From Nitrospirota bacterium (GTDB taxonomy: Bacteria; Nitrospirota; UBA9217), in assembly GCA_963818475.1 (NCBI GenBank), contig CAWFSF010000006.1, positions 352,001 through 416,000 of the forward strand: a stretch of DNA of 64,000 nucleotides, read 5' to 3'. Positions 2,284-64,000 of this stretch are shown in pieces. A program made the position numbers and the translations under genes. Positions within the stretch are counted from its first letter, which is position 1, and each line of letters begins with the position of its first letter. The notes beneath the pieces were generated by a model. That model was not told the origin of the DNA. It was given only the letters and a program-made list of their open reading frames with translations, and searched no databases.

Positions 2284-2312
2284 ATAGTAAGGGAAATGAG
2301 AAGGAGTGTCAA
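2284..2312 (-). promoter_or_regulatory. Sigma70-type promoter for the S2P-trpS genes
   Basis: TTGACA-N17-TACTAT on the minus strand. Confidence 0.55.
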
Positions 2313-2336
2313 GAAAAAATAGGCAGCGGGCCTGCA

Positions 2337-20633: not shown

Positions 20634-22018
20634 TTAAGGAGCAGTAGTTCTCTCTATTGCAGCGTAAACGATCTCCACCATGCGCTTCAGGTATTTTGTT
20701 GACATCGTGAGCGGCGGCATGAGCACGATGACGTTGCCCAGCGGCCGGATGATGAGCCCCCGTTTTCTGCATTCCAGAACGACCCGGATCCCGGCCTTGT
20801 CTTCGAGGGGGTAGGGTCGTTTCGTCTTCTTGTCCCTGACCAGTTCAATGCCGACCATAAAGCCTTTTTGCCGGACATCTCCCACATGTTGAAGTTCCCT
20901 TAATGCCAGCAGTTGTTGTGACAGGAACGCGATCTTGGGCTGGAGTCTCGATAAAGTGCTTTCCGAATGGAACAGGTCGATATTGGCGATCGCGGCAGCG
21001 CAGGCCAGCGGATTGCCAGTATAGGTGTGGCCGTGAAAGAATGTTCTTAGATCACGGTATTCTCCCAAAAAGCCCTCGGTATATCCTGTTCGTCGTGAGC
21101 GTTGCCGCCAGCGGCAGATACCCCCCGGTAATGCCTTTGGCAACGCAGAGGATATCGGGAGCGACGTCCTCGTGCTCGCAGGAGAACATCTTCCCGGTCC
21201 TGCCGAAGCCGGTCGCGACCTCATCGGCGATCAGCAGAATATTGTGCTTTGTGCAGAGTTGCCTGATCTTTTTCAGATATCCCGGAGGCTGCATGAGCAT
21301 GCCTGCCGCGCCCTGGACCAGCGGCTCGATGATGAGTGCCGCTGTTTCATGGCAATATTTCCTGATCACCCGGCCAGCCTGTTCCGCGCAGAACAACCCG
21401 CAGTCCGGGTAGGCCTTGCCGAAGGCGCAGCGGTAACAGTGCGGGGTCGGGATCTTGCGGGTCTTGAACAGCAGCGGCCGGTAGATCTCATGGAAGAGGT
21501 CGATGCCGCCGACGCTCACGGAGCCGATGGTGTCGCCGTGATACGATTCGGCAAGGGAAATGAAACCGGTCTTCCGGCGATAGACGGGTTTTTGCTGCTG
21601 CCAGAATTGGAATGCTATCTTCAGCGCGATCTCGACGGCCGTGGACCCGCTGTCGGAATAGAATACTTTTGCCAATCCCCGGGGGGCGATCGACACCAGT
21701 TTCTCAGCCCAGCAGGACCGCCGGCACGTTGGACAGGCCGAGCAGGGTGGAGTGGGCGATCTTCTTCAGCTGGGAAGCGACGGCTGCGTCGATCTCCTTC
21801 TTCCGATGGCCGTGGACCGTGACCCAGAGCGATGAGACCCCGTCAAGGTACTGCCTGCCCCGGATGTCGGTGAGAACGCAGCCCTTGCCGCTTTCGACGA
21901 TGAGCTGCGAACCTTTTTCCCATTCCTGCATCTGGGTGAAGGGGTGCCAGAGGTACTGTTTATCCAGCTTTTCGATGTGGCGGGCGGAGCTTTTTCTTTC
22001 GGCAGGTGTTTTGATCAC
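20634..22018 (-). CDS. bioA: Adenosylmethionine-8-amino-7-oxononanoate aminotransferase; two +1 frameshifts
   Basis: [52 protein letters not shown] and [12 protein letters not shown] across three frames. Confidence 0.9.
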
Positions 22019-22259
22019 CGACTGTTCTCCTTCGTGTCCGTGCTGAGGAATCCCGCAGCAAGAGTTTTCGATTACGTCGAACTGCGCCGGGAACCGGGGA
22101 TTTTCTGCAGAGCTTTGCAGCCTGCTATAGGCTGCTTATTATATTTCAACAACCCTGTTTGTCAATCATAAAAAGTGCTTGAAAAGCCTGGCTTATTTCT
22201 GGTACAATACGTTTTGCTGACTGTGATCCCTTGAGTTCATCCGGAGGATGTGCATCATT

Positions 22260-33534: not shown

Positions 33535-36500
33535 ATGAAAAGGATTGGCTGGTTCGGTATTGTTTGGATCGCAGCATTTTTTGTATGTGCTCTGACCGTT
33601 CACGCAGCTTGGGTGCCATCGGGATTGGAAGGGAAAAATGTTTTGTCCGTTGCTGAAGATCCGACGACGGTGACGGCATGGTTTGCGGGTACGGCAGACG
33701 GAGAACTGTATAAATCAACCGACGGCACAAACTGGGCAGTCTTAAATACGGGCATCCCTGCAGGGGCGGCGATACAAGCCATTACGATCGATCCCGTCAA
33801 TGCTGCAACGATGTACGCGGGCACTGCCGGGCAGGGCGTTTACGTATCGCTTGATGCGGGTAATACCTGGGCCGGTTCCGGACTTGCCGAAATGTCGGTA
33901 CGAAGCATAGAGATAGACCCTTACAATACTTCGATACTGTTTGCAGCCACGAACAGCGGAATATTCAAAAGCATTGATTCCGGCGTGAACTGGCAGCAAA
34001 TTACATCCGCCGCAATCGAATCCACGGATATCAGGAAAATCACTTTTAATCCGCGGGATCTGACATTAACACCCGCTCCCACACAAACGGATATTTTGTA
34101 TTCTGCGGCAACGGGCACGGGCGGTCTGTATAAAAGCACGGACGCGGGCGCGACCTGGACCAAAATCAGTACCGGGCTTTCCAGTCCAAACTTTACCACC
34201 GTCGCAGTAGATCCGAGCCAACCGGCTAATGTATATGCAGGTACAGCCGATGCGGGGATGTATAAGAGCGCAGATGCGGGCAGCACCTGGACGCAGATCA
34301 ACACCGGGCTCGGCAGTCAGAATATATTGAAGATCACCTTTTATCCTTACGGTCCCACGAGCATCCTGGTAGGGACGCAGTCTGAAGGTATTTACCGGAC
34401 GGACACATCCGGCAACAGCTGGTATGTGTGGAATAGTGGAAATGCAGCGACGAAAGTAAATGCAATAATCTTCCTTACGCCGCAGAATAGTTCGATTTTT
34501 GCGGGGACTTCCAACGGGGTGGTTTCTTTCGATAACTTAAAAGCAGATTTGGTCATAACTTCAGTCAGCACGGACGTCTCGACAGCGGAGACGGGCCAAA
34601 CGGTGACGGTGACGGCGACGGTGAAGAACCAGGGCCAGTGGGCCGCAGGCAATTTCTACGTGCCGATCTACCTGTCCACGGACAATGCGATTACGTCTTC
34701 GGACTTGTACGTGACGAATGTATCGGTGATGAGCCTTGCTGCGGGAGCGGAGGCGACGGTGACGGCCGTATTTACGGTGCCGGTGATGAACAGCGGGACG
34801 TACTACGCCGGGGCAATAGCGGACGGGGGTTTTAAAGATTACGGCGTATTGTACGGTAACAACTTCGTGACTGAGTCGGACGAGACGAACAACGCATTAG
34901 CAGGCAACATGATAACGCTTACCCGGCTGTATGCGGATCTCATCATAAAGCCGTCGTCGGTCAGCACGGACGTCTCGACAGCGGAGACGGGCCAAACGGT
35001 GACGGTGACGGCGACGGTGAAGAACCAGGGCCAGTGGGCTGCAGGCAATTTCTACGTGCCGATCTACCTGTCCACGGACAATGCGATTACGTCTTCGGAC
35101 TTGTACGTGACGAATGTATCGGTGATGAGCCTTGCTGCGGGAGCGGAGGCGACGGTGACGGCCGTATTTACGGTGCCGGTGATGAACAGCGGGACGTACT
35201 ACGCCGGGGCAATAGCGGACGGGGGTTTTAAAGATTACGACGTATTGTACGGTAACAACTTCGTGACTGAGTCGGACGAGACGAACAACGCATTAGCAGG
35301 CAACATGATAACGCTTACCCGGCTGTATGCGGATCTCATCATAAAGCCGTCGTCGGTCAGCACGGACGTCTCGACAGCGGAAACGGGCCAAACGGTGACG
35401 GTGACGGCGACGGTGAAGAACCAGGGCCAGTGGGCTGCAGGCAATTTCTACGTGCCGATCTACCTGTCCACGGACAATGCGATTACGTCTTCGGACTTGT
35501 ACGTGACGAATGTATCGGTGATGAGCCTTGCTGCGGGAGCGGAGGCGACGGTGACGGCCGTATTTACGGTGCCGGTGATGAACAGCGGGACGTACTACGC
35601 CGGGGCAATAGCGGACGGGGGTTTTAAAGATTACGACGTATTGTACGGTAACAACTTCGTGACTGAGTCGGACGAGACGAACAACGCATTAGCAGGCAAC
35701 ATGATAACGCTTACCCGGCTGTATGCGGATCTCATCATAAAGCCGTCGTCGGTCAGCACGGACGTCTCGACAGCGGAGACGGGCCAAACGGTGACGGTGA
35801 CGGCGACGGTGAAGAACCAGGGCCAGTGGGCTGCGGGCAATTTCTACGTGCCGATCTACCTGTCCACGGACAATGCGATTACGTCTTCGGACTTGTACGT
35901 GACGAATGTATCGGTGATGAGCCTTGCTGCGGGAGCGGAGGCGACGGTGACGGCCGTATTTACGGTGCCGGTGATGAACAGCGGGACGTACTACGCCGGG
36001 GCAATAGCGGACGGGGGTTTTAAAGATTACGGCGTATTGTACGGTAACAACTTCGTGACTGAGTCGGACGAGACGAACAACACGCTCGCGGGCAACACCA
36101 TAGCTATCGGCACGATCAACTCTTACTTTGTGACTCCCTTCGCAGGGGTTAATGGGGGCATCAGCCCCGCAGCGACTCAGGCAATAGATTCCGGACAAAG
36201 TACGCAGTTCACGATTACGCCGGACACAGGTTATCACATCGCCTCGGTGACCGGGTGCGGGGGTACTCTCGATGGAAGCACTTACACCACAGGCGCGATC
36301 ACGGGTGATTGCACGATCACAGCCGCGTTTGCAATCAACACGTACACGATCACTGCCGGGGCAGGACCCAACGGCACCATCGATCCCGCTGGGAATATCA
36401 CGATGAATCACGGCGAGAACCAGACCTTCGCGATTATACCCGCCGATGCCAGATATCATGTCGCCGATGTTGTGGTTGACGGCGTATCTGTCGGGCCTGT

Positions 36501-37275
36501 GACAAGTTATACGTTCACCAACGTGACCGCAAACCATACGATCTCCGCGACGTTTGCAATTAACACGTACACGATCACTGCCGGGGCAGGACCCAACGGC
36601 ACCATCGATCCCGCTGGGAATATCACGGTGAATCACGGCGAGAACCAGACCTTCGCGATTATACCCGCCGATGCCAGATATCATGTCGCCGATGTTGTGG
36701 TTGACGGCGCATCAGTCGGACCTGTGTCGAGTTACACGTTCACCAACGTGACCGCAAACCATACGATCTCCGCGACGTTTGCGATCAACACGTACACGAT
36801 CGTTGCTGAGGCCGGGGCCAATGGAAGCATCTCCCCCTACGGGAACATCACGGTGACTGACGGTGGCAGCCAGACATTCACGGTCACGCCTGCTTCGGGC
36901 TATAACATTGTTGATGTGCTGGTGGACGGGGTCTCAGTCGGGTCGGTGACTAGCTATACCTTCACAGCCGTGAATGCCGGGCATATTATCTTTGCTTCCT
37001 TTGACCGCGGGGCATCCGGTTCCTGCACGCCGACCATATCGCCCAGGAGCAGTCTATTCAATGGAGCAGGAGGCACAGGCAGTATTACCGTGAACGTGGA
37101 CAGCCAATGCGGCTGGACCGCCGCAAGCGATAACAGCTGGATAACGGTTACGAATGGAAGCGGCACAGGCAGCGCGACCCTGACTTACTCAGTCTCTGAG
37201 AACCAGACGTCGGCTCGCAGGGTCGGCACTATAACCATTTCCGGCCAGACATTTTCAGTCATGCAGCTGCGTTGA
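33535..37275 (+). CDS. Large secreted surface protein: BNR/VPS10-like beta-propeller, 4 CARDB-like Ig repeats, InlB-B-like repeats and a C-terminal BACON-like domain
   Basis: Signal peptide, repeated YKSxDxGxxW, four repeats of ADL..TATVKNQG..ESDETNN, GANGSISP/YTFTNVTANHTI repeats and WTAASDNSWITV..RVGTITI. Confidence 0.85.
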   Translation: MKRIGWFGIVWIAAFFVCALTVHAAWVPSGLEGKNVLSVAEDPTTVTAWFAGTADGELYKSTDGTNWAVLNTGIPAGAAIQAITIDPVNAATMYAGTAGQGVYVSLDAGNTWAGSGLAEMSVRSIEIDPYNTSILFAATNSGIFKSIDSGVNWQQITSAAIESTDIRKITFNPRDLTLTPAPTQTDILYSAATGTGGLYKSTDAGATWTKISTGLSSPNFTTVAVDPSQPANVYAGTADAGMYKSADAGSTWTQINTGLGSQNILKITFYPYGPTSILVGTQSEGIYRTDTSGNSWYVWNSGNAATKVNAIIFLTPQNSSIFAGTSNGVVSFDNLKADLVITSVSTDVSTAETGQTVTVTATVKNQGQWAAGNFYVPIYLSTDNAITSSDLYVTNVSVMSLAAGAEATVTAVFTVPVMNSGTYYAGAIADGGFKDYGVLYGNNFVTESDETNNALAGNMITLTRLYADLIIKPSSVSTDVSTAETGQTVTVTATVKNQGQWAAGNFYVPIYLSTDNAITSSDLYVTNVSVMSLAAGAEATVTAVFTVPVMNSGTYYAGAIADGGFKDYDVLYGNNFVTESDETNNALAGNMITLTRLYADLIIKPSSVSTDVSTAETGQTVTVTATVKNQGQWAAGNFYVPIYLSTDNAITSSDLYVTNVSVMSLAAGAEATVTAVFTVPVMNSGTYYAGAIADGGFKDYDVLYGNNFVTESDETNNALAGNMITLTRLYADLIIKPSSVSTDVSTAETGQTVTVTATVKNQGQWAAGNFYVPIYLSTDNAITSSDLYVTNVSVMSLAAGAEATVTAVFTVPVMNSGTYYAGAIADGGFKDYGVLYGNNFVTESDETNNTLAGNTIAIGTINSYFVTPFAGVNGGISPAATQAIDSGQSTQFTITPDTGYHIASVTGCGGTLDGSTYTTGAITGDCTITAAFAINTYTITAGAGPNGTIDPAGNITMNHGENQTFAIIPADARYHVADVVVDGVSVGPVTSYTFTNVTANHTISATFAINTYTITAGAGPNGTIDPAGNITVNHGENQTFAIIPADARYHVADVVVDGASVGPVSSYTFTNVTANHTISATFAINTYTIVAEAGANGSISPYGNITVTDGGSQTFTVTPASGYNIVDVLVDGVSVGSVTSYTFTAVNAGHIIFASFDRGASGSCTPTISPRSSLFNGAGGTGSITVNVDSQCGWTAASDNSWITVTNGSGTGSATLTYSVSENQTSARRVGTITISGQTFSVMQLR
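34564..36081 (+). repeat. Near-identical 396-bp tandem repeat (3 full copies plus a partial 4th) encoding CARDB-like domains
   Basis: Units start at 34564, 34960, 35356 and 35752 and differ by only a handful of SNPs. Confidence 0.95.
36328..36801 (+). repeat. 225-bp tandem duplication (InlB-B-like domains)
   Basis: tttgc(a/g)at(c/t)aacacgtacacgatc recurs at 36328, 36553 and 36778. Confidence 0.85.
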
Positions 37276-37352: not shown

Positions 37353-37388
37353 GAAGCGCCCTCGCTAGTCGGGGGCGCTTCTGTTTTG
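37353..37388 (+). terminator. Intrinsic terminator after the surface-protein gene
   Basis: gaagcgccctcg-cta-gtcgggggcgcttc followed by tgtttt. Confidence 0.6.
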
Positions 37389-37540: not shown

Positions 37541-37556
37541 TGGCACGGGTATTGCT
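37541..37556 (+). promoter_or_regulatory. Sigma54 (-24/-12) promoter with an upstream IHF-like site at 37522-37534
   Basis: TGGCAC-GGGTA-TTGCT (GG-N10-GC) and TTTCAATTAATTA. Confidence 0.8.
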
Positions 37557-37810
37557 TAATTTACCCTACTATTGATACTTTAGTCCGTCATTGTTGAAGT
37601 TGCTGGAAAAATTCCCGCCAGAATACTGGCGAAATTGAATCCAAAAACAGAAATTATCGTGAAAGGGGGCGATAGCTGCCTGTGGCAGCAACATCATTTT
37701 CTTTAGCATGAAGGTGGCAGCTTTGTTATTTTTGATAAGGTCCGGCAAGTATTAAGGGCGGGGGATCAGAATTTTTTAGTTGTAAACTAAACCTGATAAC
37801 GAGGGAAAAA

Positions 37811-38479
37811 ATGAAAAAAATGATCGTTGTAACAGTAGCACTGGCTTTTGTGCTCTTGAGCGCCGGAGCGGCACTGGCCGCTCTCGCGGGCAGCAAGCAC
37901 GACATGAGGACCTACCTGACAGGTCAGACGGGTGGATACGACGAAGTCTGCGTCTATTGCCACACGCCGCACAGCGCATCAATGACAGCTCAGCTCTGGA
38001 ACCATACGGCTTCCTCAGTAGGTTCCTACCAGACCTATACAAACACCTGGGGAACCTTGCAATCCGTTCCAGGAACCCCCGGCAATGGGTCGCTGCTCTG
38101 CTTAAGCTGTCATGACGGCACCGTTGCTGTTGATAACCTGGTCAATCCGCCGAACAGCGGCTCCCAGGGGAGTAATGACGGCGGCGGCGAACTTAATGCT
38201 TCTAAATATATCACTTCCGGAAGAGCTTCAAATTTTAGCACCGATCTCAGGAACGACCACCCGATCGGCTTCGCGTATAACGCCTCCCTCGTAACTAACG
38301 ACGGCGGACTTGTTGATGCGAATACCGTTGGAAATAGCACCTATGTGCGTATTATCAATGGTATTGGCGGTACTGTAGAGTGTGCAACCTGCCACGATGC
38401 TCACAATACAACGGTTCCACCGTTCCTGCGGAGCTCCAACGCGGCATCAGCGCTCTGCACCCGTTGCCACACTAAGTAA
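37811..38479 (+). CDS. Secreted tetraheme c-type cytochrome, OmcE-like
   Basis: Signal peptide; SKHD, CVYCHTPH, LWN, CLSCHDG, DLRNDHPI, ECATCHDAH, PFLR and CTRCHTK, the same motif order as recalled for Geobacter OmcE. Confidence 0.85.
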   Translation: MKKMIVVTVALAFVLLSAGAALAALAGSKHDMRTYLTGQTGGYDEVCVYCHTPHSASMTAQLWNHTASSVGSYQTYTNTWGTLQSVPGTPGNGSLLCLSCHDGTVAVDNLVNPPNSGSQGSNDGGGELNASKYITSGRASNFSTDLRNDHPIGFAYNASLVTNDGGLVDANTVGNSTYVRIINGIGGTVECATCHDAHNTTVPPFLRSSNAASALCTRCHTK

Positions 38480-38505
38480 GCAGAAGATACGAATGTTACA
38501 GTTCA

Positions 38506-38534
38506 AGAGGGGAGGAGACTCCCCTCTTTTTTTT
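38506..38534 (+). terminator. Intrinsic terminator after cytochrome gene 1
   Basis: aagaggggag-gaga-ctcccctctt followed by a T-run. Confidence 0.7.
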
Positions 38535-38940
38535 GGATTATGGCAGGTCGTTTGGCGCGGCAAAAGGTACTAAAAAAGTTTTGACTTTACTGTGACGGAG
38601 TGATAATCTGCTACGCTGGGTTGTAATTGAGGCGTGTAAATGGAGTTATGAATCATCCTTAAACGTTATTGCCATTGCGATGTGGAGCAGCTTCCATAGC
38701 CCAAAGCAGGATCGGTCGGGGTAAACCAGGACACTACAGGATGCGTACGCAGCGCCCTCGTTTATCGGGGGTTGTAAGGCGGCTAATTGTAACAATTGTA
38801 CCGCGGCGCCTCGTAGAAAAAGAGTATTGGGTTATGATTTCATTTCACTCGTAGGAAGAAGTTCATACACGCCCAAGCTCCCTGTATTCCCCGTATCCAT
38901 CTCTGGTCAACTGCCGTTATCAGATTCAAGAGGAATAGAA

Positions 38941-40002
38941 ATGCCTATTCGTGCGATACTTATACTTCTGATGCTTCTCGCTGGATGCGCGACAAAAGCG
39001 CCGCAACAAGAGCTGCTCGCGTGGCCTTCGCTGCCGGCTCTGCCGCGGGTCGCCTATGTGGCGAGCTACCGGGGATCGATCGATTTTTTCAAGCCCAAGT
39101 TTTGGGATAGTATTTTGGGGAGCGACGAAGTAAGAAAAAAAGACCTCAACAAGCCCTTTGGCGTGTCTGTGTATGGCGACAGAATTTATGTTTCCGATAC
39201 AGGGTTCGGCTATGTCGCCGTGATTGACACAAAAGAACGGAAGGTGTCCTACCTCGGCGCCAGCGGGAGGGCTGTTTTGAAACAGCCCTTTGGGGTCGCA
39301 GCTGCAGCTGATGGGACGATCTATGTTGCCGACGGAAAGCAGAAAAGTATCTACGCATTTAACCAGAACGGCGAGCTCCTGTCGGCTTTTGGCGATACCG
39401 GTGAGTTCAGCAGGCCGGCAGGGATCGCTGTCAACAGCGGACTGGGAAGGCTCTATGTGTGTGATGTTGCGGCGAACGCGGTCTTTGCCTTCTCCCTTAA
39501 GGGGGAGCGACTCTTCGAGTTTAAAAAAGGGGAGGAATCCGGAGACGGGGTTTTCAATTCGCCGACCCACATTGCCATTGACCGGAGAAATGGAAATGTG
39601 CTTGTTGCTGATACAAATAATTTCAGGGTGCAGGTTTTTGACAAAGACGGTACCTACTTGAGGAAATTCGGGCAGCTGGGCGACGGTCCCGGAGATTTCA
39701 GCAGGCCCAAGGGCATCGCTGTCGACTCCGAAGGCCATGTTTATGTGGCAGATGCGGCTTTTAATAATTTCCAGATATTCGATGACATGGGCCGGCTGCT
39801 GCTGACCGTAGGGCAACTGGGCAACGGAGCTGGAAATTTTCTACTGCCTGGCGGCATGTATATTGACGGTCAAGACAGGATCTATGTCGCTGATACCCTT
39901 AACAGGAGGGTCGAGGTGTTTCAATACATGAGCGATTCCTGGCAGCTGGCGCATCCTGAGGAGTTCAAAAAATACCTGCTTCCCGATACTGTGGCAGAGT
40001 GA
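38941..40002 (+). CDS. NHL-repeat six-bladed beta-propeller lipoprotein
   Basis: Lipobox LAGC and repeats such as FSRPKGIAVDSEGHVYVAD and FNSPTHIAID. Confidence 0.88.
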   Translation: MPIRAILILLMLLAGCATKAPQQELLAWPSLPALPRVAYVASYRGSIDFFKPKFWDSILGSDEVRKKDLNKPFGVSVYGDRIYVSDTGFGYVAVIDTKERKVSYLGASGRAVLKQPFGVAAAADGTIYVADGKQKSIYAFNQNGELLSAFGDTGEFSRPAGIAVNSGLGRLYVCDVAANAVFAFSLKGERLFEFKKGEESGDGVFNSPTHIAIDRRNGNVLVADTNNFRVQVFDKDGTYLRKFGQLGDGPGDFSRPKGIAVDSEGHVYVADAAFNNFQIFDDMGRLLLTVGQLGNGAGNFLLPGGMYIDGQDRIYVADTLNRRVEVFQYMSDSWQLAHPEEFKKYLLPDTVAE

Positions 40003-40124
40003 CAGGTTCTCGCCACCTGAAGAGGTTGAAACTCTTGTGCTGCATATCCGCTAGTAGAGGCGGGTTTAAAACCCGACCCTCCCTTCTGTCCATTTTTTGC
40101 GCCTGGTGTCGGGACTGGGGTAGT

Positions 40125-41045
40125 ATGAATAAATTATTATTAGTACTTATCATGCTTTTTTATGCGTTCCCACTGCAGGCCGACGGCAATGTGGTTGCAA
40201 GGGTTAACGGTGCTGCAATTTACTCGTTGCAGCTTGATATTGCTGTGCGTCAGCTTATCACCACCTCTACATTTCATGGGAGTCTTTCTGATGAAAAACG
40301 CCATGAATTCCAGGAACAGGCCCTTCAGGATCTTATCATCCGCGAACTGAAATATCAGGATGCAGTGGCTCGAGGATTTAATCCTGATAAAAATCTGGTA
40401 AAAACAAAGATAGCGGAAATTAAGAACAAATTTAATTCTGGAAAGGAATATAGAAAAGCGCTGTCCGAAGCAGGGCTTTCGGAAGACGATATACGCTCAG
40501 ATGTGGAAAAGAACCTTGTTATCGAAGGCGCGATCAATAAAATCGTAGTGGACGCGGCACGCTGGAATGATGCCGAGCTCAAGGCGTACTACGATTCGAA
40601 TGCCGATAAATTTACGCAACCGGAAAGCGTAAAACTGAGGATCATATCGTGTGCGGCTGAAAAAAAAGCAGCTGAGGCGTTGACCTTGATACGTTCAAAC
40701 GAAGCTTTTGGTGCGGTCGCAGCCAAAATGTCCGAGGATAATTATCGGACAAGGGGGGGCGATATCGGATATATTCATCGGGACAGGATCTACCCGGAGC
40801 TGGAAAACGAAGCTTTCAGGATGAAGCCGGGAGAGGTGAGCGGTCTGATACGCGCTGAAGGAATGTGGTTCATCATCAAGGTCGAAGAGAAAATCCCCGA
40901 GCGCCGGATCGCATTCGAGGAGGCAAAGGATAAACTCAAAAAAGAGCTCGAGGCAAGACGTTCCACTGAGATGCTCGAGAAATGGAGCCAGGAACTCAGG
41001 GCAAAGGCAAAGATAGAAATTCTGCTTAACAACGAAAAAAAATAA
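40125..41045 (+). CDS. SurA/PrsA-like parvulin peptidyl-prolyl isomerase
   Basis: VVARVNG, FGAVAAKMSED, RGGDIGY and GEVSGLIRAEGMWFIIKV. Confidence 0.85.
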   Translation: MNKLLLVLIMLFYAFPLQADGNVVARVNGAAIYSLQLDIAVRQLITTSTFHGSLSDEKRHEFQEQALQDLIIRELKYQDAVARGFNPDKNLVKTKIAEIKNKFNSGKEYRKALSEAGLSEDDIRSDVEKNLVIEGAINKIVVDAARWNDAELKAYYDSNADKFTQPESVKLRIISCAAEKKAAEALTLIRSNEAFGAVAAKMSEDNYRTRGGDIGYIHRDRIYPELENEAFRMKPGEVSGLIRAEGMWFIIKVEEKIPERRIAFEEAKDKLKKELEARRSTEMLEKWSQELRAKAKIEILLNNEKK

Positions 41046-41242
41046 AAGAGGTACCTGGCGGCGAATGAATTATCTTATGGCGAAAGCAGGCGTAACCCCT
41101 CATATTTAGTATCCCTCCCCAATAAATTCTCCTTCTGTATGGTTCGTGCTCTATGGTGAGCGAATGTGCGCACGACGTTGCATTTCCCATTGATTAGTAA
41201 TGATAACTAATTGAAATGTAATAAAAATTTTACGGCTATTAT

Positions 41243-41258
41243 AGGCATGTTAATTGCT
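41243..41258 (+). promoter_or_regulatory. Sigma54 promoter with an upstream IHF-like site at 41204-41216
   Basis: AGGCAT-GTTAA-TTGCT (GG-N10-GC). Confidence 0.65.
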
Positions 41259-41292
41259 TGTATATCTATAGTAGAAATACTGCGACTACATC

Positions 41293-43220
41293 GTGAAAGT
41301 TATGTGCTTGTATAAAATATTATATAAAATATTATATTTATCAATAATTTCCGTTCTTCTTCTTGGACCGGGACGCGCAGATGCTTATCGCGTTTCAGGC
41401 TTAGCAGCATTTACCTATACTGTTGATGAGTCTCGAACAGGAGATCGGAAAACTTCTTCACATTATTTTACCCAGGATTATAACGTCGGGTTCCAAAATC
41501 ATATCTGGGATCCGCGGTTTCTAAGATTTCACGCGGGAATCGGATATAACGTTATCACTGGTTCGACTGAAAACAAAAGCCTGACTTATGACCTTGGTAT
41601 GAACTTCTTCAGTGGCATGATGATATCCTGGAACTTGTTCGATAGAAAATCTACAAGCAAGGTGTCGACCAGAGGAAATGACTACGATCTAATGACGAGT
41701 TCCTATGGCGGATCCTTGGACCTTAATCTCAGCCGCATGGCAGGGCGGCGAAGGAATAATAACAACAACAACAACAACAACAACAATAACAACAACAATA
41801 ACTTTAATAATAACATAACAATAATAACAACAACAACAATAATAATAACAACAATAACAACGGAAGCCGGTTCCGTTTCCCTCTCCCTGATATTGAACTT
41901 TCCTTCGGACATGTTGAGTCTGAAGCACAGAATGCGCTGAATCCGATCCGTGAATCGCGTGACAACGCTGGCCTGTCTATGAAATACCGCTTTACTTCAC
42001 GGGGCGATCTGAACATAGGTCAGACCGTGGAAACGTATAAGAACTTCATTACCGGAGGAACCTATGATACGAAGTCCACGGACTTTTCATCAAAAATTCT
42101 TGTGTCCCCTGGTGCTGACCTGGTGGTGAGTGGCAACCGGCTTGACCGGACAATCACGGGCATTCCCGGGTTTGGTGCTGATAAAAGATTGCAGTCCAAG
42201 GTAGCCCTTAATTTTAAGGAGCGGGAAGGAATATCGTATGGCTACACGTATGACTTCAGCGATTCTCAGACGCCCAGCGATGAACTGACCCGCCACGATG
42301 CCGCGGCCACGGTGTCGTACCTGATCAATAGTGACCTGTCTTTGCGCGGAAACCTCAATTATAGCGTAGCGGACTATTTCATCAAAGCCACGGAAGAGAG
42401 ACAGAACCTGGAGACCGGAGGTGCTCAGACTGGGGTGGCCTACCGGAAAATCCATACGCCGGATTTTCTCGGGCCATTTGTAATGGACACTAATTATGGA
42501 TTCAATACGGGCTATTCGAAGGTCACTGGCCAGGTCAGTGAGGATACGGGGGGAGGCCTGTATTATGAAAACACCGCGGGTCTCTTATTCACGAGCAAGG
42601 GATGGACAAAGGATAGATTGTCCGCGGGTTACAATATCTCCAGCAAAAGAGACCGGTCGCCTCTTAGTAACAATGCCCGGCGGGAGAATTTTAGATTTGA
42701 TGCTTCCACATTCCGGATTCCTCAGACAACCGTGCAAGCCAATATCTCCTATAGTTCCATCGAAAATAGCAGTGCCGCCAACTATAGTGAGTTGATATAT
42801 GGATATCAAAAAAATCCGATTGCCGAACGCAGAGATCTTACCTACCAGGTGACCGCGCTTTACCTGGTCTCGCCTTCCCTGAACATTGATGTCGGAGCCT
42901 CGAAACAGCGTACTTCGGACGCTGCCTCACTTTCTACCTTGCAGCCTACTAATGCAGCGATGATCGAACAACTGGCATATATTGGCGCCCACTATGTAAA
43001 TGCTATTAGCCGCAGTCTGGTGTACCGGGCAGATGTCCGTGATGAATTCCGAAGCACATCCGGGGAAAGAATAGAAAGACGCAATGTCGAAATGAACCTC
43101 GATTACCGCATCAGGCAGGTTCTGGTAAATTTTAAATACCGCTGGAACGCGTCGATGCCTGACAACGGTCTTACTACCTACGTGCAGAGCTATTATGTGA
43201 AATTGTCGAGGCCGTTCTAA
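41293..43220 (+). CDS. Putative outer-membrane beta-barrel (~640 aa) with a poly-Asn tract; frame broken inside the tract at about 41815
   Basis: Signal peptide, amphipathic beta-strands and a C-terminal YYVKLSRPF BAM-type signature. ORFs 41293-41940 and 41979-43220 join if one A is added at 41815. Confidence 0.7.
41755..41861 (+). repeat. (AAY)n trinucleotide microsatellite
   Basis: 16 Asn codons, TTT, 3 Asn codons, an orphan AT, then 15 Asn codons. Confidence 0.95.
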
Positions 43221-43568: not shown

Positions 43569-44327
43569 ATGATCCACGGAAAAAAACTCATTGTTGTCAT
43601 GCCTGCCTATAACGCGGAAAAAACGCTTCGGCAGACCTATGCGGAGCTGCCTCATGAGTATGTTGATGAGGTCATTCTGGTGGATGATGCCTCCGGGGAT
43701 AATACGACCACGGTTGCCCATGATCTTGGCATCACCACAATCGTGCATGCTGAAAACAGAGGATACGGTGCAAACCAGAAGACCTGCTATCGGGAGGCGC
43801 TGAAGCTGGGCGCTGACATCGTGGTGATGGTCCACCCCGATTATCAGTATTCACCTCGGCTGGTAACCGCCATGGCATCCATGATCACTTCGGGGCATTA
43901 TGATGTTGCACTGGGATCAAGGATCCTGTGCGGCGGGACCTGGCAGGGAGGAATGCCCCTGTACAAATATATAGCCAATCGTTTTCTCACGCTGGTCGAG
44001 AACGTGATGCTCGGCATCAAATTATCCGAGTTCCATACCGGCTACCGCGCCTTCAGCCGGAAAGTGCTCCTTGCTCTGCCCTTAGGGGAAAATTCCGATG
44101 ATTTTGTTTTTGATAACGAGATGCTTGCCCAGTCGGTATACCGGGGGTTCAGGATCGGCGAGATAAGCTGTCCCACGAAATATTTTGACGATGCTTCCTC
44201 GATCTCGTTCACGCGCAGCGTTCACTACGGATTCGGTGTCCTGGGGACGTCGGGAAAATTTGTGCTTCAGAAGCTCGGTCTCGCAAAATTTGCCCTGTTT
44301 AGCAGCACCGGGAAAAAACTGTGCTGA
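43569..44327 (+). CDS. GT2 glycosyltransferase (DPM1-like)
   Basis: [33 protein letters not shown] and HTGYRAF. Confidence 0.88.
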
Positions 44328-48105: not shown

Positions 48106-48627
48106 TCCTGCCTCCTGATCTTCTTTTGCCGGCCGGCTTGCCGGTTCTGTTTTGCAGCAACTCTCTTCTGCTCGAGGCGGGCTTCAGGTTGGGCTCGGCC
48201 TGTGCCTCTCTGCTCTACCAGTCTTCCCGCGCCTTCATCCTTATCAAAACAGGTCAATAGTTGTGGTTGATTCGTCACGTTACTGTTGGTGGCATGCTGG
48301 AGTTTTTGAAGTTCGAGAAGCTGTTTTAGCAGGATGATGACCTCGTTCTTTCGAGGATATAGTTGCCGCTGTTGAGCAGGCGTATACGCTGTCAAGAGCA
48401 GGCCGGCAAGCGCCTTATCGGCAGAGCAGACCAGCGTGTTCTTTCTGAACTCAGCAGTCCCCCTGTCCGTCTCACCTCACTCATCTGATACCAAATTCCG
48501 CCAAGCCGACTGACGCAAATCAGATGATGGCTTGCTGTAAGATAGCTGAGAAACCTCTTGTTTGTCAAGAGAATTAATCATATCAGGAACTTGCTTTTGC
48601 AGTATCTTTTTGGTATTCTGCCCTACC

Positions 48628-50808
48628 ATGACGACGCGGCAAAAAGAACAGCAGACGGGGTTCAAGGCAGTGCTCTACCTTCTGGGGTTCATGTTCTTGA
48701 CCGCGGTCGCCGTAGTGCTGCAGCTCAGGTTCAGGGGGTTTGAAGGACCCCTCTCGGACAGCCTCCTCATTATCGTCCTGATCAATGCCAATTTCCTGCT
48801 GCTGGCGGCGGTCATCGTCATGATCGCCCGCAGTCTCTGGAAACTGTCGATCGAGAGGAAGCAACGGGTGCTGGGGGCCAGGTTCAGGACCAAGCTGGTC
48901 ACCGCCTTCGTCAGCCTGTCGTTCATTCCGCCGGTCCTGCTGTTCATCATCGGCAGCGGCATGTTCACCAGCAGCATCGAGCGGCTCTTTAACCTCAGGA
49001 TCGAGAACTCGCTCAAAGCCTCCCGTTCCGTTGCCCAGGCATATTACGACCTCCTCGATAAAAAGGCGCTCGCCTTCGGCAGGGAGATCAGCAGGCAAAT
49101 GGCTGAGGAACAGCTGCTGAACCGCTTTGAACGGCCGGTGCTCAAGGAGTATCTTGCCCGCAAAGCGGCCGAGTACGACCTGGGCGGGATCGAGCTCATT
49201 ACCGCCTCCCGTGAACGGGCGGTTACCGTTGTTACGGGACAATTCCCGGCGAAAACGTTCAGCGCCACTTCCTCCGAGCTGGCCGCGCAGGCATTATCCG
49301 GCAGGCCCGCCTCCGGCATCATCGAGTTGGGGAGGCGGGGGCAGATCGTACGCACCGTGGTCCCGCTCCGTGCCTCCGCCGAGGACCGTCAGGTGACGGC
49401 GCTGATCAGCATCAGCTACTATGTACCCGAGAACCTTGCATCAAAAGCGGCTGAGAGCAGCACAGGATATTCGCAATACCGGGCGCTGCGGACCGAAAAG
49501 GAACCGATCAAGCTGGCCTATCGGCTCGGGTTTCTCGCGGTAACGCTGTCCCTGCTTCTCGCCGCCATCTGGGTCGCGCTCCGCGTGGCGGCCGGAATCA
49601 CCGTTCCGATCCAAAAGCTGGCCGAAGGGACGGCTGCAGTAGCAGCCGGCCGGTTCGATTACCACATCGACGAAGCGCCGGGAGACGAGGTCGGGGTACT
49701 GATCAACTCATTCAACAAAATGACGAGCGACCTGAAGCATTCCCGGGAGCGCCTGGAGCAGGAGGTCGCGTACAAGGAAACCATCCTTTCGAACATCGAT
49801 ACCGGTGTTGTGTCCATGGACCGCGCCGGCCGGATCACCACCATCAATCGGGCTGCCTCGGACATTCTGAGCGTCCAGGATCAGGATGTACTCTTCAAAC
49901 GATATGACGAGGCTTTCAGCTTTATCGAACTGGGACCGGTGCGCACGTTGTTCAGCAGACTTGAGAAAGGGCCGGGCCAGGCGGAGGAGGAACTGTCGCT
50001 GACAGTGCGCGGCAGGGTCCTGACGCTCCGCATGAGGGTCACGATGCTGCGGGACAGCGGCGGGGCGCTGGTCGGATCGGTCATCACCTTTGACGATCTG
50101 ACGGAGCTGCTCAGGGCGAAAAAGGCGGAGACCTGGCAGGATGTGGCCCGCAGGATCGCTCACGAGTTTAAAAATCCGCTCACTCCCATCAAGCTCTCGG
50201 CCGAACGCCTGCGGAAAAAACATGCCGAGGGCGCTGCGGATTTCGATGCGGTTTTCGATGATTGCAGCCGCACAATCGTTCAGGAAGCAGATGCTCTGCG
50301 AAAGTTGGTCGATGAGTTCGCGAACTTTGCCCGGATGCCGAGTTCGAATCCTGTGCCGCAGCCGCTCCACCTGGTCCTGGAGAGCGTCATATCGCTTTAC
50401 GCCGGTGCGCATAAGGACATCTCCTTTGTGAGCCGGTTCCAGGCCGATATGCCCGATGTGCTGCTGGACCGGGAGCAGGTGAAGCGGGTGTTCATCAATC
50501 TCTTCGAAAATTCCGTTGAGGCCATGGGCGGCAAGGGCACGATCTGGATCACGACGGCCATGAACGCCTCGGGCAGGGCGCTGGTGGAGGTAGCGGACAG
50601 CGGGCCCGGCATCGCGCCCGAGGATGTCCCGCGGGTGTTCGAACCGGATTTCTCCCGGAAGAAAAAGAATGGCGGTCTCGGGCTGGCCATCGTGCACAAG
50701 ATCATCGCCGACCACGGCGGCTCGATCCGTTTTGAGCAGAACACACCAAGGGGTGCACGCTTTATTATAGAACTCGCTGTCAGGGACAGGGAAGTTCAGA
50801 GTTCATAG
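48628..50808 (+). CDS. NtrY-like HAMP/PAS sensor histidine kinase
   Basis: GARFRTKLV, HAMP, PAS, WQDVARRIAHEFKNPLTPIKLSAERL and GGLGLAIV. Confidence 0.9.
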   Translation: MTTRQKEQQTGFKAVLYLLGFMFLTAVAVVLQLRFRGFEGPLSDSLLIIVLINANFLLLAAVIVMIARSLWKLSIERKQRVLGARFRTKLVTAFVSLSFIPPVLLFIIGSGMFTSSIERLFNLRIENSLKASRSVAQAYYDLLDKKALAFGREISRQMAEEQLLNRFERPVLKEYLARKAAEYDLGGIELITASRERAVTVVTGQFPAKTFSATSSELAAQALSGRPASGIIELGRRGQIVRTVVPLRASAEDRQVTALISISYYVPENLASKAAESSTGYSQYRALRTEKEPIKLAYRLGFLAVTLSLLLAAIWVALRVAAGITVPIQKLAEGTAAVAAGRFDYHIDEAPGDEVGVLINSFNKMTSDLKHSRERLEQEVAYKETILSNIDTGVVSMDRAGRITTINRAASDILSVQDQDVLFKRYDEAFSFIELGPVRTLFSRLEKGPGQAEEELSLTVRGRVLTLRMRVTMLRDSGGALVGSVITFDDLTELLRAKKAETWQDVARRIAHEFKNPLTPIKLSAERLRKKHAEGAADFDAVFDDCSRTIVQEADALRKLVDEFANFARMPSSNPVPQPLHLVLESVISLYAGAHKDISFVSRFQADMPDVLLDREQVKRVFINLFENSVEAMGGKGTIWITTAMNASGRALVEVADSGPGIAPEDVPRVFEPDFSRKKKNGGLGLAIVHKIIADHGGSIRFEQNTPRGARFIIELAVRDREVQSS

Positions 50809-58417: not shown

Positions 58418-58505
58418 TATTAACATTGCAACAATCATAAAAGGGCAATAGTTGTATGACGATAAATTGCTCTTTAAGTAGTTGAATTTATTTAGGAGTA
58501 TTGAA

Positions 58506-59261
58506 ATGTCAAGAAAAAGCATGCTGGTTAATCTGATGATAATATGTTTTATGTTTACCTTCTCAGGTATGGCTTCCGGTGGCACTATTGCCGGCAGCAA
58601 GCATGACTTTTCGAAGAACGAATTGCCAATTGTAACCTATTTTGCCGGAAACTTCACGTCCGGAGGTGATGAAATCAGAGAGACGTGCGTGTTCTGCCAC
58701 ACCCCGCATGCTGCTTCGACAGCGGTGACAGGGTTTCTCTGGAACCGGACCGGTTCTTCTGTGGCTAACTATGATATGTACACCAGCACAACGCTTTCCG
58801 TCGTCCCTGACTCGAGGCCGACCGGCTTGACGCTTATGTGCATGAGCTGTCATGACGGCGTAACCTCCATAGCGGTTGGAACGCTTATAAATGCGCCCGG
58901 GGCAGGCCCTGTTGACCTGGTCGCTCCTGGTGCCTATCAGTTTATCGGCGAGATTTACTACCCCAGTCCTTTTTTCGGTGGTGAATGGCAGGCGAATATC
59001 GGCAACCTTACCCCGGATGGCACCTTCGGCACGAGGGCGAACCTTAGTGATGACCACCCGGTATCGTTTACGTGGAATAATAATGTCCCCGGCATTTTCG
59101 ATCCAGGCGAGTGGACGGGAGTTGGTGCGACAGCGCTCAAACTTTTTAATAACAGGATGGAATGCTCCACGTGTCACAATGTGCATGATAACACAAACGC
59201 GCCTTTTTTAAGGATGTCGAATGCTGATAGCGCTATGTGCACAACGTGCCACGACAAGTAA
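58506..59261 (+). CDS. Secreted tetraheme c-type cytochrome, OmcE-like paralog 2
   Basis: SKHDFS, CVFCHTPH, LWNR, CMSCHDG, LSDDHPV, ECSTCHNVHDNTNAPFLR and CTTCHDK. Confidence 0.87.
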   Translation: MSRKSMLVNLMIICFMFTFSGMASGGTIAGSKHDFSKNELPIVTYFAGNFTSGGDEIRETCVFCHTPHAASTAVTGFLWNRTGSSVANYDMYTSTTLSVVPDSRPTGLTLMCMSCHDGVTSIAVGTLINAPGAGPVDLVAPGAYQFIGEIYYPSPFFGGEWQANIGNLTPDGTFGTRANLSDDHPVSFTWNNNVPGIFDPGEWTGVGATALKLFNNRMECSTCHNVHDNTNAPFLRMSNADSAMCTTCHDK

Positions 59262-59317
59262 CGACGGCTTCGGTGAAACTGGGCGATCCTGATTTTAAAG
59301 CTACCTCGGAGGTGTGT

Positions 59318-62056: not shown

Positions 62057-62085
62057 GGCGCTTAAAGCACGAAGGAGCGGGGACT

Positions 62086-64000
62086 ATGAAGAAATCGAAT
62101 TACACACTGATCTCACTCGTACTACTGGTAGGAATGTACTGTGCTGCAAGCGTGTCATACGCGCTCGATGCGCCGCATAACCCCGCTAACACCGCGGTCC
62201 CAGTCGTCTGCAATAAGTGCCACTACCCCGCGGGTCAGGTGCCGGGCTGGGTGACGAGAACTCCTCCGGTAGGCAGCACGTACCTGAACGAGCTCTGCAT
62301 AGTTTGTCATTCTTCAAATAGCGGCTTCGTCGCGAACGCGAAGTCTGAGGACGTCCTCACCCATTCAAGCTATGTGACCCTTCCCACGAATACTAACATC
62401 CCCGTCTATCTCATGGAATGCCGCAACTGCCATAACCCGCATACGCAGGACCAGATGAGGGCAAATCCCTCCCTGGGTGATATTGAGTCAGGTGTTACGT
62501 CCGCCGTATTTGCTTCCTCGCTGACAGACAGCACTAAAAACTGGGTGGTAAACCGGTTTAAGGATGCATTGCTGCTGCCGAATGGGGCTTACGTGTCGAA
62601 TGCATATGTGATCACGGGTAATACCGCGACTACGCTTAACGTCATCGGCCCCATGAACATAAAGTCTCCCTATGCAGGCGCAGGTACAACCTATAAGATC
62701 AAATATGGCAAACTGGTGAAGACGTCTGTCAAATTACCGGCCGGCGGCACAATGCCCGTCACATTCGTGTCCAATACCGGGGCCAATTCCTTTGTAAACA
62801 CGCCGACCGTGAATGGGGTATGTCAGGTATGCCACACCCTTACCAAGGGCTTCAAAAGAGACGGATCCATGAGTTGGTCAGGTCATGCCGGTCAACCAGG
62901 CGCTAATTGCACCGAGTCCTGCCATCTGCACAAGAACGGGTTCAAAGGCCTTCTTGGCCTGGGCGCTGGTTGCAACGCCTGCCACGGCGCTCCGCCAACA
63001 GACTCAACGCTAATCACTGTTGATAAAAATCAGGTGGGCGTCACCTCACAGTCTAACGGCGCCGGCGCTCACGCGATACACACGGCACTTGACCCTGTCA
63101 ACACCTGCGTAAACTGTCATCTCGGCGGCATGGCTCCGCTGCTTGGAGCGACTGAGGCTGGCAACAAAATAACCATGGGCTTTTCCTTGGCGACCGTTAC
63201 TATCCCTGGCACCTATGATGGTGAATCCGGACGGACCACTTTTGATTATGAGCAAAAAGGAACGACTGTTGTTACCAGAAACAATAACTTTACCTGTACG
63301 AACCTGTATTGTCACAGCAATGTGCAGACGGGAACCGGCGGTACTGCCTCTGCTGCTACCTCAACGCCGAGCTGGTACAATACAGCAAGCGGCCAGTGCG
63401 GCACCTGCCACTTGGGAGATGGCGTACAGGGCAACGCGAGCCTGATCAGTACGGGAAGCCATACCAAGCATGTGACCCTGGCAACCTATAACTTTTCCTG
63501 CGGCCAGTGCCATAATAACGCCGGCACCGGGAACGCGAACCACGTTGACAATAATATTCAAGTATCGCTCCTTGGCACCGGCGCTTACAGTCAGGTGCCC
63601 AATACCCCGAAAAACGGCTACGGCAACTGCTCGACGAGCTATTGCCACAGCACCGGCCAGTCTTCGACGGGCGGCTTACCGGCAACCTACGTCACGGCCA
63701 CCTGGGGCACCACGCTGGGCTGCAACGGCTGCCATGTGAACATGAACTCCAGCCCCGTTGCTCCGGGCAGCCACATCAGCCATGTCCAGTCCGCGCCCAA
63801 CTACGCGTGTTCGGTCTGTCACAATGGTTATACTGCGTCTGCGGTCAATCCTTCTACCCACGTAAAAAATGGTTCCATCGATGTCGCGATTACCGGCTAT
63901 GGCGCTGGCGCGTATTACACAGGCGGCACGACCAGCGGCAATCACGCCAGCGGCGGAGGATACGGCACCTGTAACGCATCGATGTGCCACGGCAGCAAGT
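62086..64000 (+). CDS. Large secreted multiheme c-type cytochrome (CxxCH/CxxxxCH type), partial at the window end
   Basis: Manual translation gives an open frame of more than 630 codons after an AAGGAG RBS, with a signal peptide, 10 CxxCH, 1 CxxxCH and 3 CxxxxCH. Absent from the ORF track because no stop codon is in the window. Confidence 0.9.
   Translation, partial: MKKSNYTLISLVLLVGMYCAASVSYALDAPHNPANTAVPVVCNKCHYPAGQVPGWVTRTPPVGSTYLNELCIVCHSSNSGFVANAKSEDVLTHSSYVTLPTNTNIPVYLMECRNCHNPHTQDQMRANPSLGDIESGVTSAVFASSLTDSTKNWVVNRFKDALLLPNGAYVSNAYVITGNTATTLNVIGPMNIKSPYAGAGTTYKIKYGKLVKTSVKLPAGGTMPVTFVSNTGANSFVNTPTVNGVCQVCHTLTKGFKRDGSMSWSGHAGQPGANCTESCHLHKNGFKGLLGLGAGCNACHGAPPTDSTLITVDKNQVGVTSQSNGAGAHAIHTALDPVNTCVNCHLGGMAPLLGATEAGNKITMGFSLATVTIPGTYDGESGRTTFDYEQKGTTVVTRNNNFTCTNLYCHSNVQTGTGGTASAATSTPSWYNTASGQCGTCHLGDGVQGNASLISTGSHTKHVTLATYNFSCGQCHNNAGTGNANHVDNNIQVSLLGTGAYSQVPNTPKNGYGNCSTSYCHSTGQSSTGGLPATYVTATWGTTLGCNGCHVNMNSSPVAPGSHISHVQSAPNYACSVCHNGYTASAVNPSTHVKNGSIDVAITGYGAGAYYTGGTTSGNHASGGGYGTCNASMCHGSK

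Follow-up and report, generated by a model that had tools for sequence, protein, structure and literature searches.

Positions 37541-43220 of a 64-kb stretch of DNA (contig CAWFSF010000006.1, positions 352,001 to 416,000; the whole 64,000-nucleotide stretch that we analysed is called the window below) hold a gene for a small tetrahaem cytochrome that resembles OmcE, the subunit of a conductive extracellular cytochrome filament of Geobacter, followed by three candidate helper genes that encode an NHL-type propeller lipoprotein, a peptidyl-prolyl isomerase (PPIase) and a large outer-membrane protein. All features of this locus lie on the + strand, and the subunit gene and the three helper genes together span 5.7 kb. 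The window is chromosomal, as trpS, purNM, fab genes, plsX, degP, ruvCAB and aspC are found in it. The features of the locus, with the kind of evidence for each, are as follows:

37541..37556, + strand: sigma-54 (-24/-12) consensus TGGCAC-N5-TTGCT, sole exact match in 64 kb
37568..37810, + strand: putative long 5' leader of the cytochrome mRNA (start set from the promoter position; folding)
37811..38479, + strand: OmcE-family tetrahaem cytochrome of 222 amino acids (aa), likely filament subunit (PDB matches, haem ligands)
38505..38536, + strand: intrinsic terminator, 10-bp GC-rich stem and T8 (scan and folding)
38581..38609, + strand: candidate sigma-70-type promoter for the helper genes, TTGACT-N17-TAATCT, TGATAAT conserved (conservation with the related locus L001)
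38941..40002, + strand: six-bladed NHL beta-propeller lipoprotein, 353 aa (Pfam NHL, PDB propellers)
40125..41045, + strand: periplasmic SurA/PEB4/PrsA-like parvulin PPIase chaperone, 306 aa (Pfam and PDB matches)
41302..41940, + strand: large outer-membrane protein gene, 5' part with signal peptide and first strands, leaving the frame in the Asn tract (family profile)
41761..41861, + strand: (AAC/AAT)34 tract encoding the Asn-rich loop, with a single-base frame slip near 41815-41820 (sequence)
41817..43220, + strand: large outer-membrane protein gene, 3' part, C-terminus ...KLSRPF (family profile)

The 222-aa open reading frame (ORF) at 37811-38479 contains four CxxCH motifs (CVYCH, CLSCH, CATCH and CTRCH) and four further His, H30 (KHD), H54 (TPH), H150 (DHP) and H198 (CHxxH), as a preliminary description of this DNA had stated. 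In an alignment of the window cytochrome with 48 small four-haem homologues from related loci, the eight Cys and H51, H54, H101, H150, H195, H198 and H220 are invariant in 49/49 rows, while H30 is conserved in 48/49, its single gap being a truncation at a contig end; the same Cys and His are invariant in a second alignment of 48 rows (A2), from which the truncated rows L001 and L058 were excluded. The distal haem ligands are thus fixed across the homologues. Sequence searches of all PDB chains matched the cytochrome to 9yuq_N over residues 1-222 (E=2.3e-34) and to 7tfs_A over residues 6-222 (E=7.8e-28), and found no monomeric cytochrome that matches over the full length. The family profile built from A2 likewise retrieved full-length matches only to 9YUQ (E=3.1e-55) and 7TFS (E=1.1e-46), the next PDB matches being short and local (OmcS, 6ef8, at E=1.6e-5, and one other chain). 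Of these structures, 7TFS is the OmcE filament of G. sulfurreducens (GSU0618), and 9YUQ is a D. soudanensis OmcE bundle of 16 chains of 198 residues with 64 bis-His haems, in which a His of one chain ligates a haem of the adjacent chain (PMC13712944; 10.64898/2026.02.26.708365); the 9YUQ model covers 198 of 218 residues (10.64898/2026.02.26.708365).

The cytochrome is about 40% identical to the solved OmcE subunits, its four CxxCH motifs and four distal His follow each other in the OmcE order, and H30, H54, H150 and H198 align with His of 9YUQ and 7TFS. Each of the four His that bind haem in OmcE outside the CxxCH motifs has an invariant counterpart here, so that the His that bridges subunits in OmcE must correspond to one of H30, H54, H150 and H198. 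The preliminary description had allowed that the best matches might prove to be monomeric periplasmic cytochromes, or that the inter-subunit His might be missing; the sole full-length PDB relatives, by sequence, are OmcE filaments, and none of the four His is lacking. An N-terminal export signal was recognised by reading, the hydrophobic MKKMIVVTVALAFVLLSAGAALA aligning with the precursor N-termini of 9YUQ and 7TFS. The family is large, comprising 1832 clusters at E<=1e-10 among 5403 candidates, all of them under generic names such as 'cytochrome c3 family'.

The closest relatives of the cytochrome are 61-68% identical, compared with 93-97% for RuvB; divergence of the subunit thus seems to run far ahead of that of core genes, and most of it falls in two loop regions. 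Its surface loops vary quickly and its haem core is fixed, a pattern that has also been reported for OmcE filaments (PMC13712944). The window cytochrome has nine His, compared with eight in a paralogue that is encoded further downstream in the window (see below). The ninth, H65 (LWNH), is replaced by Arg in both solved OmcEs and in the paralogue. A filament-terminating 'anchor' subunit has been speculated to carry nine His (PMC13712944), and we considered this role for the window cytochrome and dropped it, since position 65 alternates between His (8) and Arg (4) in 12 close relatives and so behaves as a basic position; a ligand role for H65 is therefore unlikely.

The gene for the propeller lipoprotein probably starts at ATG 38941 (MPIRAILILLMLLAGC) and ends at 40002. 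Its product carries NHL repeats (Pfam, E=1.1e-32) and, by reading, the lipobox LLAGC, in keeping with the NHL lipoprotein proposed in the preliminary description; its closest PDB matches are NHL propellers (TRIM71, E=1.4e-58), and it is 36% identical to the product of the NHL gene in a Geobacteraceae cluster (L013). The next gene, with a likely start at 40125 and an end at 41045, had been described as a SurA/PpiC foldase and indeed encodes a protein with SurA_N_3 (Pfam, E=7e-13) and Rotamase_2 (E=7e-21) domains, whose PDB matches are Cbf2/PEB4 (E=1.3e-12) and SurA (E=6e-11).

Co-occurrence of these genes with the cytochrome was surveyed in 80 loci, kept of 129 confirmed relatives, in which the window's proteins were searched by tblastn (E<=1e-5) and partners were counted within 6 kb. 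The 80 loci contain an NHL gene in 53 cases, a PPIase gene in 34, a barrel gene in 39, all three in 24 and none in 20. Where at least 5 kb of sequence flanks a small four-haem gene on both sides (24 loci), the counts are 20 for NHL, 18 for PPIase, 20 for the barrel, 14 for all three and only one locus without any; the 13 loci that have the same flanks around a five-haem or larger relative give 6, 2, 1, 1 and 7, respectively. The partner genes are mostly on the same strand as the cytochrome and 1-3 kb away, and the company of four recurs in Pseudomonadota, Acidobacteriota and Nitrospirota, so that the neighbours do co-occur with the cytochrome across phyla, which the preliminary description had held open. 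By comparison, the genes that flank the locus in the window, for a GT2 glycosyltransferase (43569-44327) and for a 1246-aa CARDB/BACON protein (33535-37275), have a counterpart in 0/80 loci, and the unit therefore consists of these four genes.

Two layouts could be told apart among the loci. The Geobacteraceae locus L013 reproduces the published one, with two multihaem cytochromes, an NHL gene, the OmcE-like gene, a second NHL gene and a 752-aa barrel, and no PPIase. The PPIase-bearing layout is that of the window, of the Nitrospirota locus L059, of Acidobacteriota and of a 29-member proteobacterial clade, in which 24/29 loci have the PPIase and the remaining ones are short contigs; many homologous loci belong to Gallionellaceae and other iron oxidisers. 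In the cytochrome tree the window's two paralogues side with Geobacteraceae, Deferribacterota, Desulfosudis and Acidobacteriota, with 98% support in the Shimodaira-Hasegawa-like approximate likelihood ratio test (SH-aLRT). Counts of CxxCH motifs, obtained for the 79 loci with a matching ORF, are four in 49 loci, five in 19, eleven in five and six in two, with single loci at 2, 3, 10 and 18; the five-haem group fits what may be a new family of OmcE nanowires (PMC13712944). At least two small OmcE-like genes were found in 17/67 related loci.

The last gene of the locus is present as two parts that match consecutive segments of one 622-position family profile (positions 4-186, E=2.9e-63, and 153-622, E=2e-149), with no other stops in either half, and the slip between them lies inside the 34-unit AAC/AAT tract at 41761-41861. 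The 3' part is 65% identical to an intact 635-aa relative (P0002), the N-terminus of the 5' part resembles those of the intact relatives P0002 to P0007, and all 15 aligned full-length relatives are intact. A word-indexed search with the 3' part found 18 proteins, one of which is the window's own 413-aa piece; the full-length relatives are 616-665 aa long and 33-65% identical, all named 'hypothetical', and an exhaustive profile search recovered 227 representatives with E<=1e-3, of which 111 reach <=1e-10 and 59 reach <=1e-30. The outer-membrane barrel of the preliminary description thus stands as a conserved gene for a large outer-membrane protein and falls as a single open frame, the gene being split in the Asn tract; because of this frame break the preliminary description as a whole is partly confirmed.

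We infer that the large protein is an outer-membrane beta-barrel from several features of its sequence family. Its members have a signal-like N-terminus and an invariant C-terminal Phe (...RPF), and 1/15 matches OMP_b-brl (at 2e-4). The language-model neighbours are unnamed proteins of about 600 aa (0.97-0.98), with porin/barrel clusters at 0.93. A crude strand-alternation scan gave 21 segments of alternating hydrophobicity, with 14.7% of windows above the 95th percentile of shuffles, and a single-sequence version of the scan gave 0.107-0.117 for the barrel proteins versus 0.02-0.07 for three non-barrel proteins. Barrels in the surveyed loci were located by clustering the large ORFs of the loci and by family profiles; when the two barrel halves were searched against the 80 loci by tblastn, only the N-terminal one was recovered, and only in L059, and single-sequence searches with hidden Markov models added L013 only. 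The family profile of the window's barrel (A3), which holds no sequence from the loci, matches barrels in 10 loci. With the 752-aa barrel of L013, a Geobacteraceae OmcE cluster of canonical type, it aligns only over 167 N-terminal columns, where hhalign gives a probability of 92.9%; among themselves, the loci's two other barrel groups align at 92.7%. An Asn-rich, Arg-flanked loop stands at the same alignment site in 50/50 close relatives of the window's barrel (5-25 Asn per 23-48 residues) and is absent from the other two groups, and at least 8 Asn per 25 residues occur in 0/237 background ORFs. Judged by this conservation, the poly-Asn tract is not a random insertion; our guess would be that the loop forms a gate or plug.

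The cytochrome gene is preceded by TGGCACGGGTATTGCT at 37541-37556 (+). Nowhere else does the window match TGGCAC-N5-TTGCW exactly; 0.05 such matches are expected by chance and 5/100 shuffles contain at least one, which upholds the sigma-54 promoter of the preliminary description. When one mismatch was permitted, three motifs were found in the window against 2.7 expected, which is not above chance. Across the related loci, TGGCAY-N5-TTGC occurs within 500 nucleotides (nt) upstream of the OmcE-like gene in 7/75 loci, about 13-fold more than the 0.54 expected, and the motif stands upstream of a leading NHL gene in 3/29 loci (0.21 expected). Sigma-54 promoters depend on an ATPase that binds an enhancer; the window shows no evident gene for one, and a histidine kinase of the AtoS/ZraS/NtrB type is encoded at 48562-50808. 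The leader (37568-37813, about 245 nt) folds with -67.4 kcal/mol (z = -2.46; 0/200 shuffles fold as well), and Rfam matched neither the leader nor the intergenic gap to a riboswitch or any other family.

The cytochrome gene also has its own terminator, recognised earlier and borne out by scan and folding: a 10-bp stem (38505-38528) followed by T8, 26 nt past the stop codon, within a 66-nt stretch that folds with -23.4 kcal/mol (z = -3.5; 0/200 shuffles fold as well). An identical hairpin is found 3' of the orthologue in L001, and in 15/47 loci a hairpin with a T-run follows the OmcE-like gene at a distance of up to 150 nt, compared with 4/386 other + strand ORFs, a control set that includes some spurious ORFs; after the partner genes, terminators are found in 1/35 (NHL), 0/30 (PPIase) and 0/30 cases (barrel). 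A gap of 400 nt separates the terminator from the NHL gene, and within it positions 38540-38790 are conserved with L001:600-860, including a promoter-like block (TTGACT...TGATAAT) that has been kept although the flanking cytochromes are only 57% identical. The block at 38581-38609, which the promoter consensus scan did not list, may be a separate sigma-70-type promoter for the helper genes, a reading drawn from two sequences (the window and L001). The preliminary description held that the terminator would give an excess of subunit transcript. The comparative counts support this and the subunit is probably expressed apart from, and above, the machinery; since the promoter-like block is conserved just past the terminator, the mechanism looks like two separately driven units and not like simple read-through attenuation alone. 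A further conserved block at ~38710-38780 contains a GC-rich hairpin-like element, AGCGCCCTCG...CGGGGG, which resembles the terminator at 37353-37381.

The host is Nitrospirota-like and not a Geobacter, as judged from its proteins, which agrees with the non-Geobacter lineage suggested earlier: the named closest matches are Nitrospirota, RuvB is 85% identical to the protein of a Nitrospirota metagenome-assembled genome (MAG), with top matches of up to 97%, and those barrel relatives that bear taxon names are Nitrospirae or Nitrospirota. The best related locus, L001, is also from a Nitrospirota MAG (cytochrome 57% and NHL protein 76% identical). The GC content at third codon positions (GC3) is 0.58 for the cytochrome, 0.59 for the NHL gene, 0.49 for the PPIase and 0.42-0.55 for the barrel, lower than in ruvB (0.75), degP (0.72) and the kinase gene (0.76).

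Taken together, the PDB relatives, the haem ligands and the co-occurrence across phyla support the interpretation of the preliminary description, a compact locus for the biogenesis of a cytochrome filament, and we consider it likely that the four genes, on the chromosome of a Nitrospirota-like bacterium, serve an extracellular cytochrome filament of the OmcE type. Like the OmcE clusters (GSU0618/7TFS; WTL/9YUQ), the window has an NHL-type propeller lipoprotein beside the subunit, and it holds the frame-split gene for a putative large barrel; an NHL homologue is present in 53/80 loci, Geobacteraceae L013 among them. The window differs from those clusters in having a PPIase, a different genomic neighbourhood and the Asn-rich loop of its barrel subfamily. 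OmcE homologues selected by a large barrel and a propeller lipoprotein have been reported in five phyla including Nitrospirota (PMC13712944; preprint October 2025, mBio August 2026); the locus is therefore not a new system and is a new example of a known one, with a layout known in other bacteria. No PPIase, isomerase or SurA, no RpoN and no terminator is mentioned in the mBio text of that study, whose Fig. 4D or supplements may show PPIase clusters; in the published texts that we searched we likewise did not find a PPIase in OmcE-type clusters, a post-subunit terminator or a sigma-54 motif linked to omcE, which figures and supplements may hold.

Other nanowire systems share parts of this layout. 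The osc kit that accompanies OmcS has, at the domain level only, the same cast of roles as the window (Rotamase + SurA_N, an outer-membrane protein and NHL). OscH reportedly has a prolyl isomerase domain, OscE/F/G are said to be channel-like and OscD propeller-like. For OmcS, a role in folding has been proposed for OscH and one in secretion for OscE/F/G (PMC13194489, citing Shen et al. 2025, Cell Chem Biol). Compared with the osc kit, the window's set is smaller, with three helper genes, and its subunit is OmcE-type and not a hexahaem OmcS, to which it has only the local match. The omcZ operon (OmcZ, the protease OzpA and a prolyl isomerase) also encodes a prolyl isomerase together with a nanowire cytochrome, and this isomerase is reported to be needed for OmcZ nanowire expression in Shewanella (10.64898/2026.07.18.739370). 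OmcZ differs in being octahaem and matured by proteolysis; it is described as lacking His ligation between subunits (PMC12307469), and its self-assembly may need no porin.

With chaperone-usher pili (Pap, Fim, CupE) the locus would share a logic, in which a chaperone acts in the periplasm, a barrel sits in the outer membrane and each subunit completes its neighbour. Pilus subunit genes are known to be expressed in excess of the machinery. The analogy with these pili has already been drawn for OmcE (PMC13712944); here, the link between subunits would be His-haem ligation and not donor-strand exchange, and neither a PapD-like chaperone nor a PapC/FimD-like usher was found by Pfam or NCBIfam matches in the four genes or in the barrel relatives. 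Porin-cytochrome conduits (MtrAB/MtoAB/PioAB, PCC3/4) likewise encode a large barrel beside multihaem cytochromes and are common in the same iron-cycling taxa (PMC5566968); by comparison, the window's cytochrome is a small OmcE-type tetrahaem protein and not a periplasmic deca-haem rod, and the window's barrel and its relatives have no Pfam match to MtrB-like or other porin-cytochrome families.

A working model can be put together from these comparisons. Of its steps, export via Sec and haem attachment in the periplasm follow established knowledge. On this model, an enhancer-binding activator would switch on the sigma-54 promoter, the precursor would be exported via Sec and receive its four haems in the periplasm, and the PPIase chaperone would keep the loop-rich holo-protein assembly-competent, by analogy with OscH for OmcS and with the OmcZ isomerase. 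The lipoprotein propeller and the large barrel would form the exit and anchor at the outer membrane, by analogy with the porin model that is favoured for OmcE export (PMC13712944), and the propeller might guide or gate at the inner face of that membrane. Subunits would then be added head to tail, each lending one His to a haem of its neighbour, and the terminator together with the separate promoter-like block would yield far more subunit than machinery.

Several points weigh against a filament locus. The roles of the PPIase, the propeller and the barrel are assigned by analogy only. The barrel gene lies in two frames one base apart (an ORF at 41302-41940 and a frame open from 41817 to 43220), and if this break is true the pore is lost. 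The signs that the protein is a beta-barrel are indirect, and no Pfam, NCBIfam or PDB family names its family, the best PDB profile match being at E=0.37. The smallest OmcE clusters of Desulfuromonadia always contain two multihaem cytochromes and two propellers (PMC13712944), whereas the window has a single NHL gene at 37.5-43.2 kb and, from 12.8 to 58.4 kb, no second ORF with CxxCH, and thus no multihaem cytochrome pair in the cluster. No partner was seen within 6 kb of the cytochrome in 20/80 loci, many of which are short contigs or five-haem-and-larger variants. An AlphaFold2 model of the cytochrome monomer, computed without haems from the 48-row alignment, was unusable (predicted local distance difference test, pLDDT, 43.3; predicted template modelling score, pTM, 0.27). 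Finally, eight His for four haems suit a monomeric bis-His cytochrome equally well, and the His count alone is therefore no proof of a filament.

This last point also bears on an alternative that we regard as unlikely, in which the cytochrome does not polymerise and, as a monomer or small oligomer at the outer surface or in the periplasm, docks in or on the barrel, with the propeller and the PPIase serving as maturation factors. Four haems with eight His require no neighbour, porin-cytochrome conduits, too, pair a barrel with a cytochrome in their gene layout (PMC5566968), and many of the loci are from Gallionellaceae and other iron oxidisers, for which conduits are the accepted model. However, the sole full-length structural relatives are filament subunits, the barrel families lack a match to MtrB or to any other porin-cytochrome family in Pfam, and the dedicated terminator after the gene in a third of the loci suggests the bulk expression of a structural subunit; the quickly varying loops over a fixed haem core are, moreover, as reported for OmcE filaments (PMC13712944). 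It is very improbable that the NHL, PPIase and barrel genes serve envelope biogenesis in general and just happen to adjoin the cytochrome: SurA-like PPIases and NHL propellers are indeed common and have many roles, but the group of four is found again in three phyla, mostly on a single strand and with spacings of ~1-3 kb, and the window's own flanking genes are missing from all 80 loci.

The frame break raises the further possibility, which we hold to be quite unlikely, that the locus is decaying, with the barrel a true pseudogene, the kit dead and the second OmcE-like locus of the window (58.5-64 kb) in use. Besides the split itself, such decay would fit with the paralogue, which has all haem ligands, lies 20 kb off and neighbours both a 939-aa NHL protein and a cytochrome carrying at least 10 haem motifs, and with the GC3 of the PPIase and barrel genes (0.42-0.55, against 0.72-0.76 in housekeeping genes). 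Both barrel halves are nevertheless well conserved (65% identity; E=2e-149 and 3e-63) and free of other stops, and the promoter, the terminator and the other three genes are intact. Moreover, bioA, at 20637-22135 (-), is also broken, into three frames (22135-21707, 21765-21055 and 21230-20637), by two like single-base slips that point to assembly error: both of its junctions are, as in the barrel gene, single-base length changes at short one-base runs, and the gene is otherwise well conserved (TIGR00508, E=4.8e-86 and 2.9e-38; Aminotran_3 on the N-terminal piece). As three single-base slips thus hit conserved genes within 64 kb, we lean towards an assembly error as the cause of the frame break in the barrel gene. 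As a separate observation, a periplasmic-binding-protein gene at ~2260-4247 (-) also looks split, which suggests indel errors in the assembly.

If a filament locus is accepted, its four genes could be read jointly, albeit tentatively and with considerable doubt, as a self-sufficient and portable usher-like machine (barrel of 600-750 aa) that exports a cytochrome wire and polymerises it with neither pili nor ATP, in which the terminator and the separate helper promoter set the ratio of subunit to machine, the conserved Asn-rich loop of the Nitrospirota barrel subfamily acts as gate or plug, and the PPIase version, rather than that of Geobacter, is the common form in nature. Were this true, electrons would flow along many such wires both into and out of cells, since the PPIase version occurs in iron-oxidising Gallionellaceae, Burkholderiales, Acidobacteriota and Nitrospirota. 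By published accounts, it is an open question by what route cytochrome nanowires pass the outer membrane and how they are assembled (PMC13712944; PMC12307469). The locus adds no new principle and is among the most compact layouts, and with one subunit and three helpers in 5.7 kb, under its own promoter and terminator, it is a practical candidate for minimal reconstitution. The survey adds some regularities: a PPIase gene accompanies most OmcE-like genes outside Desulfuromonadia, a terminator follows right after the subunit gene in a third of the loci, and sigma-54 motifs recur upstream. The set of candidate nanowire loci from uncultured Nitrospirota grows as well, a point of relevance to the cycling of iron and sulfur in aquifers and sediments.

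Elsewhere in the window, a second OmcE-like locus was found at 58482-63999 (+). Its cytochrome gene (58482-59261) encodes 259 aa that are 38% identical to the first cytochrome (E=1e-41), with all four CxxCH motifs and four distal His, and with matches to 7TFS (E=3.7e-22) and 9YUQ (E=2.8e-20). This gene has no terminator or sigma-54 motif of its own and overlaps the start of the gene for a 939-aa NHL/BACON/FG-GAP protein (59237-62056), after which follows a cytochrome with at least 10 CxxCH motifs that runs past the end of the window. Upstream of the first locus, 33535-37275 (+) encodes the 1246-aa protein, which is secreted and has BNR/Sortilin-like, four CARDB and BACON domains; two repeats occur in its gene, one of 396 nt in 3.8 copies at 99% identity and one of 225 nt in 2.1 copies. 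The GT2 glycosyltransferase encoded 3' of the barrel gene (43569-44327, +) is of the polyprenyl-phosphate hexose transferase type; glycosylation gene sets have been linked to freshwater OmcE clusters (PMC13712944).

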